In this document: one piece after another, positions 10,982-14,128 of the stretch
Position numbering within the stretch: the stretch's first letter is position 1
How the letters are laid out: every line of letters starts with the position of its first letter
Assembly (NCBI GenBank): GCA_045430285.1
Contig: JAILXV010000001.1
Location: 236,387 to 300,386 of the forward strand
Origin: Agarilytica sp.
GTDB taxonomy: Bacteria; Pseudomonadota; Gammaproteobacteria; Pseudomonadales; Cellvibrionaceae
Reading direction: 5' to 3'
DNA: 64,000 nucleotides
Program-made: the position numbers and the translations under genes
The notes under the pieces: model-generated
Databases searched by the model: none
What the model was told of the DNA's origin: nothing
Seen by the model: the letters and a program-made list of their open reading frames with translations, nothing else

Positions 10982-13900
10982 ATGCATCTAATGAAGACCC
11001 TCCGAACATTGCAAAGCTGCGCAATAGGTATTGTGAGCGTTGCCAGTTTAACCGCAACTTCCGCTTTTGGTCAGATTATGACCGGAAGTGGTGATGTGGA
11101 TTCATACTCGTATAGCGGTTCTCGCACACGCGAATACGATGTTTACGTCCCACAGTCATACGATGGTACTACCGCTGTTCCCATGATATTCGCGCTACAT
11201 GGTTGTGCGATGAATCATGATGACGCTCGCGGTACGTGGAACCTTGATCTTATTGCTGACCAAAACAACGTCATCGTTGTTTTCCCGTTTGTAACGAGCT
11301 TCTCTGAAATGCGTAATGAGAACTGTTGGGGCTACTGGTTTGATACCCACGTACAAGAAGGTGCGGGCGGTGAGGTCGATGACCTTTACGGTATGGCACT
11401 GGAAGTTGAAAGTGAATACAACATTGATCCAGATCGTCGCTATATCACGGGTATTTCCTCTGGTGGTGCAATGACTGTAGCGGCTGGTATTGCGTATAAC
11501 GATTACTGGGCCGCAATGGCACCTGTTGAGGGGCTTGCTTATGGAGACGGGTCAAGTTCTGTAACGGCTGACCAATTTAATAGCGTTCAATTCCACGTTG
11601 ATAAAATCGACGCAGAATTGGATGACACTCGTGCAATCCCAACACTCGTTATTCATTCGACTAACGATACTGTTGTGATGATTGATGGCGGAGAGTTGAT
11701 TCGTGATTCTCAGTTAACAGCGTTTGATGCAGATTTAACGGCTGACGGCACTGAGAGTTGTACCGCTGAGAGCATAAGCTGTACCTTAACGACGTATAAC
11801 GACTCTAACGGTGACCCGCTTGTTAAAACGATGTTCTACAACGGTGTCGCTGGTAAGTCCGCTTCCTACGGCCAAGGGCACTACTGGACGGGTGATGACC
11901 AAAACACGGATAAGTGGGCAGAGTCTCAAGGTCCTAGTGCGTCTCAGTACATTTGGGAATTCTTCTCGCAATATACTTTGGACGGTTTCGATTCTTGTGA
12001 TGACCCCAATGACACTACGGCACCAGGTACGCCATCTGGTCTAAGTGCGGATACTGTCGGTGATAAGTATGTCGTGATGAGCACAACGGCTAATACAGAG
12101 TCCGACTTTAAAGGCTACAACTTGTACTTCTCTGGCGGTGCTTCAGCGGGTTCAGTGTCTTCTTCTGACTTTACGCTTACTGGCTTGAGCCCACAAACGT
12201 CTTACACGGTTTACGCTAAATCTGTCGATAAGTGTGGCAACGAATCCTCTGCTTCAAGCAATGTGTCTTTCACGACTACAGCTCTCGAGTATCTTGCACC
12301 AAGCGCAACGGGTACATGTACAGAGCACTATAACGCTGGTCGATTAGAAACTTCTGAGTACACCGCGTGTGGTAGCGAGCATGGTTACATTGATGATGTG
12401 ACTTACTGGGAGCTTTCAGATGGTTCATGGGTTGATACAGATCCTAACGGTGGCGCAACAGGTGGCGGCTCTGGTGGATCAACAGGTGGTGGCACAGGAA
12501 CTGACTATCCTCCTGGTTCATGGGCAACTGACAGTAACTTGGCCGGCATGGAAGTGCACATCTATACCCCTGGTTCAGTAACCACAAACGGCAAGCGGGC
12601 GCTTATGATCAGCTTGCACGGCTGCTCACAATCCAACGAAGTTGTTCGTGATAACTGGGGCTGGAAAGACGAAGCGGACGAGTACGGTATGGTTATCGCT
12701 GCGCCGATGGCACCTAACGGTGGTGTAATTGCTGGCTGCTGGGATTACTACGACAGCAACCACGACGGTGACAGCCCAGGTCGTCACGACGACAACTTGA
12801 TTAACCTTGCCAACGCACTGATCAACGACTCTGTATTGAATATTGATGCTGACCAAGTGTATATAGCAGGCCTTTCTTCAGGTGGCGGTGAAACCTTTGT
12901 GATGGGCTGTGTTGCACCAGACATCTTCGCAGGTATCGGCATTAACGCTGGCCCAGCTGTAGGCACTACTTCTGGTCAAATCGGAAGTGTTCCATCAGGT
13001 CGTACTACGTCACAAACGGCGTCTACCTGTGAGAGCTTCACTACAGCAGACTCTGACTTTGACACACAGTTGACCTCTGTCATTCACGGTACCGCAGACT
13101 ACACAGTAGGCACTGACTACGCTGAGCACGATGCAGCAGCCATGGCGAATGTGTACAACGTAAGTAAAGACTCGGGCTCTAACAGCATCGCTGGCGGTGG
13201 TACTGAAGAAACTTGGTCTGACGCAACCGGTGTGCGTGTATCTAAGATCATGTCTTCAGGAATGGGGCACGCATGGCCAGCAGGTAATGACGAGACAGGT
13301 GGTGCGTATACTGACCATTCAACCGTTGATTACCCAGCGTTTGTGACTGAGTTCTTCTTCTCTAACAACCGTCGTGCAGACTTCACCAGCAATGATACAA
13401 CTGCGCCTGCAGTACCTTCTGGCTTGTATGTGACTGATTATGGTGAGAACGATGTACAGCTAGCATGGACAGATGTATCTGATGATGACTTCGCGCGCTA
13501 TAACCTCTACCTAGACGGTGTACTGTTTGGTAATTCTGCAATACCCATGGGTACAGTGAATGGCTTGCAAGAAAATACGCAATACGGCTTCAGCGTAACA
13601 GCGGTAGACGTGACGGGTAATGAGTCCGCTCAAAGTGCAACGGTTTACCAAACAACGGCGTCCAGCGGTGGTAACCCAACACCAACGGCCACGCCAACAC
13701 CAACGCCAACTCCGACTCCAACCCCAACACCCACGCCTACAGCAACACCCACGCCAGTAGCGCAAGAGACGGCAACGTGCACAGAGCACTATGTGGCGGG
13801 TCGCTTGACTTACACGACATACATCGCGTGTGGCTCTGAGTATGGTTACGTCAATGATGTAACGCTTTACGAAGTTGAATCTGGTGTATGGGAAGATAAC

Positions 13901-14128
13901 GATTCAAATGGTGATACAGGTGGCGGTAGTGAAAGTGGCGGTAGCTGGACTTGTGGAGAAGTTGTCGCGAGTAATACGGCTCACGTAGCTGCCGGTCGAG
14001 CGACTACTAACTACGTAACTGCAACAGCTGTAGGGTCAAGTGACAGCATGGGCAGCTACTCCATGTTCACCTACACGACTTTGGCCGAGACTTCGGAAGA
14101 TTACTACGAAGTCGGAAGCTGCCCCTAG
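10982..14128 (+). CDS. phaZ: Extracellular PHB depolymerase with two catalytic domains, two Fn3 linkers and three substrate-binding-type domains
   Basis: Signal peptide; LHGC..GISSG..D240..GHYW in the first domain; LHGC..GLSSG..D717..GHAW in the second; C-terminal ASNTAHVAAGRA...YYEVGSCP PHB-binding domain. Start 10982 or 10991 (residue numbers follow the 10949 ORF). Confidence 0.9.
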   Translation: MHLMKTLRTLQSCAIGIVSVASLTATSAFGQIMTGSGDVDSYSYSGSRTREYDVYVPQSYDGTTAVPMIFALHGCAMNHDDARGTWNLDLIADQNNVIVVFPFVTSFSEMRNENCWGYWFDTHVQEGAGGEVDDLYGMALEVESEYNIDPDRRYITGISSGGAMTVAAGIAYNDYWAAMAPVEGLAYGDGSSSVTADQFNSVQFHVDKIDAELDDTRAIPTLVIHSTNDTVVMIDGGELIRDSQLTAFDADLTADGTESCTAESISCTLTTYNDSNGDPLVKTMFYNGVAGKSASYGQGHYWTGDDQNTDKWAESQGPSASQYIWEFFSQYTLDGFDSCDDPNDTTAPGTPSGLSADTVGDKYVVMSTTANTESDFKGYNLYFSGGASAGSVSSSDFTLTGLSPQTSYTVYAKSVDKCGNESSASSNVSFTTTALEYLAPSATGTCTEHYNAGRLETSEYTACGSEHGYIDDVTYWELSDGSWVDTDPNGGATGGGSGGSTGGGTGTDYPPGSWATDSNLAGMEVHIYTPGSVTTNGKRALMISLHGCSQSNEVVRDNWGWKDEADEYGMVIAAPMAPNGGVIAGCWDYYDSNHDGDSPGRHDDNLINLANALINDSVLNIDADQVYIAGLSSGGGETFVMGCVAPDIFAGIGINAGPAVGTTSGQIGSVPSGRTTSQTASTCESFTTADSDFDTQLTSVIHGTADYTVGTDYAEHDAAAMANVYNVSKDSGSNSIAGGGTEETWSDATGVRVSKIMSSGMGHAWPAGNDETGGAYTDHSTVDYPAFVTEFFFSNNRRADFTSNDTTAPAVPSGLYVTDYGENDVQLAWTDVSDDDFARYNLYLDGVLFGNSAIPMGTVNGLQENTQYGFSVTAVDVTGNESAQSATVYQTTASSGGNPTPTATPTPTPTPTPTPTPTPTATPTPVAQETATCTEHYVAGRLTYTTYIACGSEYGYVNDVTLYEVESGVWEDNDSNGDTGGGSESGGSWTCGEVVASNTAHVAAGRATTNYVTATAVGSSDSMGSYSMFTYTTLAETSEDYYEVGSCP
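13676..13759 (+). repeat. Pro/Thr dipeptide linker of phaZ
   Basis: Encodes PTPTATPTPTPTPTPTPTPTPTATPTPV with varied codons. Confidence 0.95.

Follow-up and report, generated by a model that had tools for sequence, protein, structure and literature searches.

A predicted PHB depolymerase of Agarilytica with two different type-1 catalytic domains in one chain

Extracellular depolymerases of short-chain-length polyhydroxyalkanoates (scl-PHA), such as poly(3-hydroxybutyrate) (PHB), are described as enzymes with one catalytic domain, whether in the DED classification (PMC2666664), in a metagenomic survey (bioRxiv 10.1101/2020.05.08.085522) or in a 2025 review (PMC11893044); another 2025 paper, also on single-catalytic-domain enzymes, considers a new architecture at the C-terminus worthy of note (PMC12278694). 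Here we describe a gene for a 1059-aa protein with two such domains, found in a 64,000-nt stretch of an Agarilytica sp. genome (assembly GCA_045430285.1, contig JAILXV010000001.1, positions 236,387 to 300,386; the whole stretch is referred to below as the window). Like the canonical type-1 enzymes (the Ralstonia pickettii T1 / Alcaligenes faecalis T1 class, ‘e-dPHAscl type 1’ in DED), the protein has a putative signal peptide, an alpha/beta-hydrolase domain in which HGC precedes GxSxG, a fibronectin type III (Fn3) domain as linker and, at the C-terminus, a substrate-binding domain (SBD) of about 55 aa ending in ...G.C(P) (PMC2666664, PMC11893044). Unlike them, it has two divergent catalytic domains (CD1 and CD2, counted from the N-terminus) and two Fn3 domains, and a module that lacks a family model, here called X, occurs in it twice. 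A single catalytic domain per polypeptide is the only canonical feature that it lacks. An earlier sequence-only reading of the same DNA had proposed two complete, different catalytic domains in one chain, and its premise that known enzymes have one agrees with the reviews and classification papers.

The closest solved structure to both heads is LtPHBase of Lihuaxuella thermophila (PDB 8daj and 9byu), for CD1 by sequence and for CD2 by fold and motifs; in contrast to our protein, this enzyme of a thermophilic soil Firmicute is a lone catalytic domain without linker or SBD (PMC9601781, PMC12278694). Single-domain marine depolymerases of the layout CD1-Fn3-X-SBD (P0028-P0032 and the Agarilytica loci L007, L009 and L018-L023) have CD1, Fn3 and X 49-73% identical to those of the window protein, but lack the linker-CD2(-Fn3-X) insert; more distant single-domain kin are the 560-600-aa enzymes of Marinobacter, Pseudomonas, Saccharospirillum and Halomonas. 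A two-headed layout is known from chitinase B (ChiB) of Saccharophagus (‘Microbulbifer’) degradans 2-40, which has two domains of glycoside hydrolase family 18 (GH18) with different activity (Howard et al. 2004, as related in PMC5590474). ChiB, of the same bacterial family, likewise carries two homologous, divergent catalytic domains in one secreted chain with low-complexity linkers and binding modules, and our protein combines two catalytic domains, flexible low-complexity linkers and putative binding modules. At the same time, ChiB is a glycoside hydrolase rather than a carboxylesterase and its substrate is unrelated; the likeness goes no further than analogy, and only for ChiB are the two heads known to differ in activity.

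Our scans placed both heads in the same depolymerase family. Taken apart, aa 1-353 and aa 515-813 score 186.4 and 190.1 bits against NF050058, the NCBIfam model for extracellular catalytic domain type 1 scl-PHA depolymerases (curated cutoff 150 bits), and CD1 and CD2 also exceed the cutoffs of TIGR01840 (141 and 182 bits; cutoff 107.85) and PF10503 (55.6 and 50.8 bits; cutoff 23). The type-2 model NF050059 gave 55 and 50 bits for the two domains, far below its cutoff of 280, and in the NCBIfam scan both fell well under the cutoffs of the models for medium-chain-length PHA depolymerases. Nor do the domains read as esterases of the carbohydrate esterase family 1 (CE1) type: both pass the PHA-specific model, and the accessory modules are of the PHB-depolymerase type rather than carbohydrate-binding modules.

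Both heads also have the active site expected of type 1. In CD1 the oxyanion motif H84-G85-C86 (LHGC) is followed by the nucleophile S170 (GISSG), D240 and H311, and in CD2 H557-G558-C559 (LHGC) is followed by S643 (GLSSG), D717 (GTADYTV) and H774 (GMGHAWP), so that each oxyanion motif lies N-terminal to its lipase box, an order that is among the defining features of type 1 (PMC2666664). The eight catalytic residues named in the sequence-only reading all stand at the positions and in the motifs that it gave. Its view that both triads are intact extends to related proteins as well: in an alignment of 27 proteins with the same tandem layout, the Ser, Asp, His and HGC of CD1 and of CD2 are invariant in 27/27, together with other positions that bring the invariant total to 74/309 in CD1 and 72/291 in CD2. 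Ratios of nonsynonymous to synonymous substitution rates (dN/dS) were 0.033 for CD1 and 0.037 for CD2 against the orthologous locus L001, and 0.034 and 0.036 against L002, values that are approximate since dS is about 1 and near saturation. The sequences point to purifying selection that is equally strong on the two domains.

CD1 and CD2 align colinearly over their full length at 26% identity and are, on sequence grounds, old paralogs from different subfamilies. The separate domain scores and this identity bear out the proposal of two complete, different catalytic domains in one chain. A recent internal duplication was considered and rejected: in addition to the low identity of the heads, the Fn3-X units share at the DNA level only 98 bp at 69%. 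CD1 matches 8daj in sequence (E 1e-34), its S170, D240, H311 and C86 aligning with S121, D197, H270 and C40 of LtPHBase, which are the crystallographic triad and the oxyanion cysteine of that enzyme (PMC9601781). CD2, modelled alone with AlphaFold2 (AF2; predicted local distance difference test, pLDDT, 95.9; predicted template modelling score, pTM, 0.94), has its best fold matches in 9byu and 8daj (TM 0.85 and 0.82), ahead of fungal feruloyl and acetyl-xylan esterases, and a fold search with the full-length model returned 9byu/8daj at the top as well (TMt 0.87). Four consensus motifs of LtPHBase recur near-verbatim in CD2 (HGCSQ, IDADQVYIAGLSSGG, GTADYTV and GMGHAWPAG). CD1 has clade-specific variants (HGCAM, G[ILV]SSGG, SSND[TE][TV]V and GxGHYW), which are common to the single-domain CD1 enzymes. 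The divergence of the heads, both in overall identity and in these motifs, hints at different activities.

We set the domain boundaries from blastp, hidden Markov models (HMMs) and AF2. The chain runs signal, CD1, Fn3a, X1, Gly linker, CD2, Fn3b, Pro/Thr linker, X2 and SBD (Table 1), and the domain map of the sequence-only reading agrees with ours to within a few residues. That reading had further expected two Esterase_PHB, two fn3 and one PHB_depo_C match; the first two were found by the Pfam scan (PF00041 scores 33.5 bits for Fn3a and 32.4 for Fn3b; cutoff 25), but PHB_depo_C had no match in the HMM scan. No Pfam or NCBIfam model covers the X modules or the C-terminal SBD, and we recognised both by alignment to the modules of homologs. 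The predicted SBD (aa 1000-1059) aligns with the C-terminal SBDs of 28 homologs, with the common motifs N.AH..AGRA, GS and TLAET...Y..G.CP. Identity is 38-40% between Fn3b and Fn3a, and 57-60% between X1 and X2. The full-length AF2 model consists of folded domains and disordered linkers with a pTM of 0.40, and therefore predicts no fixed packing of the two heads. At the junction of the two halves, a low-complexity linker of 14-33 aa is present in 27/27 homologs.

Table 1. Features of the tandem depolymerase gene and its surroundings (window coordinates), with coordinates of tandem-gene arrays at other loci
Feature	Position	Strand	Basis or remark
N-terminal secretion signal, putative	10982..11071	+	Inspection: basic n-region, hydrophobic core CAIGIVSVASLTATSAFG, likely cleavage after SAFG
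CD1, aa 42-350, type-1 PHB depolymerase catalytic domain, marine gammaproteobacterial clade	11072..11998	+	NF050058, TIGR01840, 8daj match
CD1 nucleophile codon, Ser170	11456..11458	+	Motif, alignment
Fn3a, aa 355-445, fibronectin type III linker domain	12011..12283	+	PF00041 E 4.8e-08; AF2 beta-sandwich, pLDDT 76-91
X1, aa 446-500, module of about 55 aa	12284..12448	+	Homolog alignment; AF2 pLDDT 74-82
Gly/Ser/Thr-rich flexible linker, aa 501-521, junction of the two halves	12449..12511	+	AF2 pLDDT <50
CD2, aa 522-812, mainstream type-1 PHB depolymerase catalytic domain	12512..13384	+	NF050058, TIGR01840, AF2 fold match
CD2 nucleophile codon, Ser643	12875..12877	+	Motif, alignment
Fn3b, aa 813-906, second fibronectin type III domain	13385..13666	+	PF00041 E 1.1e-07; AF2 pLDDT 89-95
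Pro/Thr-rich linker, aa 907-932	13667..13744	+	Sequence; AF2 pLDDT <50
X2, aa 933-990, second X copy	13745..13918	+	X-HMM 79.6 bits; low AF2 confidence, few alignment rows there
C-terminal SBD, aa 1000-1059, predicted, classical PHB type, ...NTAHVAAGRA...GS...TTLAETSEDYYEVGSCP	13946..14125	+	Homolog alignment; AF2 pLDDT 91-96
Intrinsic-terminator-like hairpin AGCCCC-GAAA-GGGGCT (14170-14185), then TTTTTG	14170..14195	+	42 nt past the stop codon
TonB-dependent receptor gene	19872-22685	+	
Single-domain type-1 PHB depolymerase, 419 aa, Pro/Thr linker + SBD	22856-24115	-	
PMT-family protein O-mannosyltransferase	24426-25964	-	PF02366 145 bits
Tandem-gene array	L006: 2294-5404 and 5953-8811		
Tandem-gene array	L008: 6001-8781 and 9213-12065		
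Tandem-gene arrays, Agarilytica plastisphere MAGs	L039 (three ORFs); also L030, L032		

The junction between the halves, which the sequence-only reading had marked as a place to look for an assembly chimera, proved to be real. Orthologs in metagenome-assembled genomes (MAGs) of Agarilytica sp. are 93% identical in PHBVgamm1 (on a 1.42-Mb contig) and 90% in PHBVgamm4 (0.96-Mb contig), and a third, in AMN13_PHB_gam1 (0.1-Mb contig), is about 70% identical; the orthologs L001-L003 are all colinear through the junction, with X2 missing from L003. The gene order around L001 appears to be the same, as judged by comparing the sizes, order and strands of open reading frames (ORFs) rather than by alignment. 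Moreover, one contig of 24,730 bp at depth 18, assembled independently by Logan from an aquatic metagenome run of 2025, spans window positions 10700-14300 at 99.4% identity without joints. The strain in that run differs from the window, over the same positions, by 21 substitutions and one 1-bp indel (outside the ORF) in 3.6 kb, and most of the differences listed are transitions. Near-identical DNA was present in only two ‘aquatic metagenome’ runs from 2025, which places the organism in at least two samples from a single study; look-ups of the exact sequence, with each of three starts, gave no match.

The relatives of the two heads lie in different places. For CD2, the nearest free-standing relatives (50-57% identity) are type-1 depolymerases of 400-500 aa, many from Actinobacteria and some from Proteobacteria. 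The sequence-only reading had assigned CD2 to a clade shared with the second depolymerase gene of the window, at 22856-24115, but the product of that gene is only 37-38% identical to CD2 and the assignment did not hold. CD1 represents a rarer marine gammaproteobacterial clade, in which every relative with more than 53% identity comes from a PHA-film MAG; single-domain CD1 homologs at 40-43% identity are present in cultured members of Marinobacter, Pseudomonas, Saccharospirillum, Oceanospirillum, Thalassolituus, Halomonas and Pistricoccus. That the clade includes Marinobacter and Pseudomonas is compatible with the earlier description of CD1 as ‘P. stutzeri-type’ and does not prove it.

We built neighbour-joining (NJ) trees of CD1 and CD2 separately. 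Tandem and single CD1-Fn3-X-SBD proteins interleave in the CD1 tree, where the window CD1 groups with the singles P0028-30 and P0032, while the CD2s of tandem proteins group in a single clade that includes no complete free-standing protein (bootstrap of the strict clade, 0.32). The simplest history that fits both trees is, tentatively, that linker-CD2 was inserted a single time, between X and the terminal SBD of a CD1-Fn3-X-SBD enzyme, and was subsequently lost or shuffled; the ‘fusion of two whole genes’ suggested from the sequence alone is too simple. The C-terminal part is highly modular in the family, with 0-2 Fn3 domains, thrombospondin-type repeats, BIg domains, Pro/Thr linkers and two types of SBD.

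The tandem layout is shared by many proteins. About 27 database proteins of 900-1150 aa (NCBI, ENA, JGI and Logan) have the core CD1-Fn3-X1-linker-CD2. When all fetched loci were translated and scanned with CD1 and CD2 HMMs, intact CD1-CD2 ORFs were seen in at least 11 MAGs of uncultured marine bacteria: four of Agarilytica, one each of Colwellia, Cellvibrionaceae and Alteromonadaceae, three labelled ‘Gammaproteobacteria’ (from PHB or PHBH films) and one from Microflora Danica (MFD). Nearly all of these MAGs come from films of PHB, of poly(3-hydroxybutyrate-co-3-hydroxyvalerate) (PHBV) or of poly(3-hydroxybutyrate-co-3-hydroxyhexanoate) (PHBH), and most of the isolate names indicate enrichments on these polymers. 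Among the GTDB representative genomes, none from a cultured organism showed the tandem form, and the cultured relatives are single-domain. Many of the genomes with tandem genes have several copies, at times two or three head-to-tail (L006, L008 and L039), and the depolymerases of Agarilytica plastisphere MAGs are a large lineage-specific expansion. At least 11 CD1-type genes were counted in the MAG BHT04_PHB_gam1. A correlation of Agarilytica and Colwellia with PHA plastispheres has been reported, along with more than 10 secreted depolymerases for each of these taxa (Omura et al. 2024); tandem domains go unmentioned in the text and in 45 supplementary files of that paper.

Full-text literature searches, with subscription-only papers outside their scope, did not turn up any account of PHA depolymerases with catalytic domains in tandem, and the sequences themselves are public and annotated merely as ‘PHB depolymerase family esterase’. 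From these comparisons, the tandem architecture is new to the literature searched, real, conserved and linked to PHA films. The surprise is tempered, because a multi-catalytic design is familiar from polysaccharidases of the same bacterial family.

We think it likely that the gene encodes a secreted PHB/scl-PHA depolymerase, chromosomally encoded, with two catalytically competent type-1 alpha/beta-hydrolase domains of different subfamilies. In the mechanism that we propose, the protein would be exported in a Sec-dependent manner, and the C-terminal SBD together with X1 and X2 would fasten it to the hydrophobic polymer surface. The disordered Gly-rich and Pro/Thr-rich linkers and the Fn3 spacers would let the heads sweep adjacent polymer chains independently, and two non-identical heads on one anchor would give a higher local catalytic density. 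Since their subfamilies have long been separate, the heads probably differ in preference, in a complementary manner (internal vs chain-end sites, crystalline vs amorphous regions, or stretches of 3-hydroxybutyrate (3HB) vs 3-hydroxyvalerate (3HV) or 3-hydroxyhexanoate (3HHx)). Such an enzyme would be akin to the multi-catalytic chitinases and cellulases known from related Cellvibrionaceae. CD2 would have been inserted once and then repeatedly lost or shuffled, and the family would have grown into arrays of several genes in marine plastisphere bacteria. That the heads are outright non-redundant (for example, chain nicking by one and processive release of monomers or dimers by the other, or tolerance of 3HV/3HHx), with strong tethered synergy, is a possibility that we put forward with some hesitation and slightly favour against; a split into endo and exo, or polymer and oligomer, activities is pure conjecture.

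Several points count against the reading as a two-headed secreted depolymerase. For every member of the family we infer activity, substrate range and synergy; no RNA runs containing the gene were found, which bears on expression, and the signal peptide was assessed by eye. The dN/dS comparisons suffer from the saturation mentioned above, and the low bootstrap of the CD2 clade makes a single-fusion history tentative. The binding role of X is circumstantial, with a marginal profile match to the SBD. Finally, PF10503 also includes the CE1 feruloyl and acetyl-xylan esterases, so a non-PHA substrate is possible for one head.

This last point leads to the alternative that both heads are active but one acts on a non-PHA ester (other aliphatic polyesters, or acetylated or feruloylated polysaccharides), in which case the protein would be a mixed-function esterase. 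The top PDB sequence matches of CD2 are fungal feruloyl and acetyl-xylan esterases (8iy8, E 1e-10; 5x6s), which also take ranks 3-8 in the fold searches; LtPHBase hydrolyses polylactic acid (PLA) and polycaprolactone (PCL) too (PMC9601781), and Cellvibrionaceae are polysaccharide degraders. We nevertheless regard a non-PHA head as unlikely, given that both domains lie above the PHA-specific NF050058 cutoff, that the fold of CD2 is closest to a PHB depolymerase with the CE1 esterases behind, that its free-standing kin are annotated as type-1 PHA depolymerases with PHB-type SBDs, that the chain terminates in a predicted classical PHB SBD, and that nearly all MAGs of the family come from PHA films. 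Somewhat less probable again is a precursor that is cut in its linkers after secretion, into CD1-Fn3-X1 and CD2-Fn3-X2-SBD, so that the tandem would serve co-expression and not tethered synergy. Each half has an Fn3 and an X module of its own, the linkers are long, disordered and protease-accessible, free-standing CD1-Fn3-X-SBD proteins are known from databases, and a subtilase gene lies within the window. A cut CD1 half would, however, be without a classical SBD, and the CD2 half is without an X module in most homologs, so that the halves are not self-sufficient; in addition, the order CD1-Fn3-X1-linker-CD2 is strictly conserved, while the highly variable linkers show no conserved cleavage motif.

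The departures of CD1 from the PHBase consensus (HGCAM vs HGCxQ, STNDTVV vs GxxDYTV, GQGHYW vs GMxHxxP) could be taken to mean that one catalytic domain is silent and kept as an extra polymer-binding or structural module, and dead catalytic domains do serve as binding modules in other polymer hydrolases (general knowledge). We consider this very improbable: nucleophile, acid, base and oxyanion residues are invariant across the tandem proteins in both domains, dN/dS is equally low in CD1 and CD2, and single-domain CD1 enzymes share these CD1 motifs and would, on that view, lack any active domain. Nor is it at all credible, so far as assemblies can tell, that neighbouring or paralogous genes were joined into one two-domain ORF by chimeric assembly or binning. 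These genomes do carry many paralogous, often adjacent, depolymerase genes, and repetitive linkers can mislead assemblers, but separate MAGs have the same colinear layout at three levels of identity, as do the roughly 27 proteins of many sources; the independent contig of 24.7 kb crosses the whole gene, and the reading frame is unbroken through the linker.

If the protein is, as we favour, a depolymerase with two working heads, it bears on commercial bioplastics. Those sold as biodegradable in the sea are mainly PHB, PHBV and PHBH, and the rate at which they disappear depends on extracellular depolymerases; bacteria that colonise PHA films in coastal and deep-sea water carry the two-headed form, often in multi-gene arrays. 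Surveys that count one depolymerase per match would underestimate catalytic capacity. Should the heads cooperate, engineers of faster bioplastic-recycling enzymes would have a natural template in the tandem enzymes, the fate of PHA in the sea could be predicted with a better marker gene, and intramolecular synergy could be tested directly on a polyester that is insoluble and synthetic-like. Non-redundant heads, if real, would make the tandem and the type-2/type-1 depolymerases an unrecognised class of ‘self-contained’ PHA-degrading machines, and would help account for the dominance of Agarilytica and Colwellia on marine PHA films.

Other layouts with more than one catalytic domain, outside the family of the window protein, came up in an exhaustive search of 1.84 billion representatives and in follow-up scans. 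Two proteins, P0269 (956 aa) and P0309 (1041 aa), fuse a type-2 to a type-1 domain (NF050059 371 and 354 bits, NF050058 252 and 226 bits, respectively). P0033 and P0043 have the reverse order CD2'-CD1'; P0041, P0042, P0044, P0218 and P0249 have CD1''-Thr linker-CD2''; P0197 is CD2-X-CD2 and P0198 is CD1-SBDs-CD2. We found no description of these further multi-catalytic layouts in the literature searched. The C-termini of P0027, P0035 and P0037 consist of a Gly/Ser stretch, a hydrophobic helix and a basic tail (e.g. ...GSMGYLIGLFGLVLITIRRKRR); they resemble a C-terminal sorting or anchor signal, which suggests cell-surface-anchored depolymerases in some lineages.

Module X, with the motif HYxAGRL...Y.A.G..GY...TLW/Y...G.W, is present in 67 fetched depolymerases (its bearers elsewhere include P0208, P0261, P0218, P0309 and P0204). 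In 12 of the 67, X (at times in two copies) is the only non-catalytic module at the C-terminus, and a classical SBD is absent. The finding of X alone at the C-terminus in these enzymes suggests a role in polymer binding, and X may be a candidate for a new family of PHB-binding domains. A profile comparison with the classical SBD (hhalign) gave a marginal result (probability 4%, E 0.01), and the AF2 topology of X has a beta-alpha start in common with the SBD and then diverges; homology between the two is only hinted at.

The gene itself is a single uninterrupted ORF of 1059 codons on the forward strand (10949..14128). Three in-frame ATGs, at 10949, 10982 (M12) and 10991 (M15), leave the start codon ambiguous: the start at 10982 chosen in the sequence-only reading does correspond to an in-frame ATG, but it is the second, the ORF opening at 10949 and 10991 being possible as well. 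By inspection, the predicted signal cleavage SAFG/Q lies immediately ahead of the conserved mature N-terminus xMTGSG, and homologs have an AxA-like site right ahead of a conserved MTG(S/T)G motif. The gene looks monocistronic, because about 530 bp of intergenic DNA precede it, a terminator-like hairpin follows it and the next gene downstream is on the opposite strand. Its neighbours encode a cold-shock-domain protein, an aerolysin-like protein, a short-chain dehydrogenase/reductase (SDR), a zinc-dependent alcohol dehydrogenase (Zn-ADH) and a LysR regulator, and there is no PHB-utilisation operon among them. Elsewhere the window has ordinary chromosomal genes (gltX, a TonB-dependent receptor, citrate synthase, sdhA, sucA/B and lpd).

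The aerolysin-like gene (14375-15553, minus strand) is convergent with the depolymerase gene and encodes 392 aa with a hydrophobic, signal-like N-terminus. Its match to the Aerolysin family is weak (PF01117 23.6 bits, slightly below the cutoff of 24.3), and the product may be a beta-pore-forming-toxin-like protein. At the Agarilytica MAG locus L001 a 460-aa ORF occupies a similar position, the comparison being of position and not of aligned sequence.

The second depolymerase gene of the window is flanked by the genes for a TonB-dependent receptor and a PMT-family protein, the latter unusual for a gammaproteobacterium. Speculatively, the receptor might import 3HB oligomers, and the PMT protein might glycosylate the Pro/Thr linkers of secreted depolymerases.

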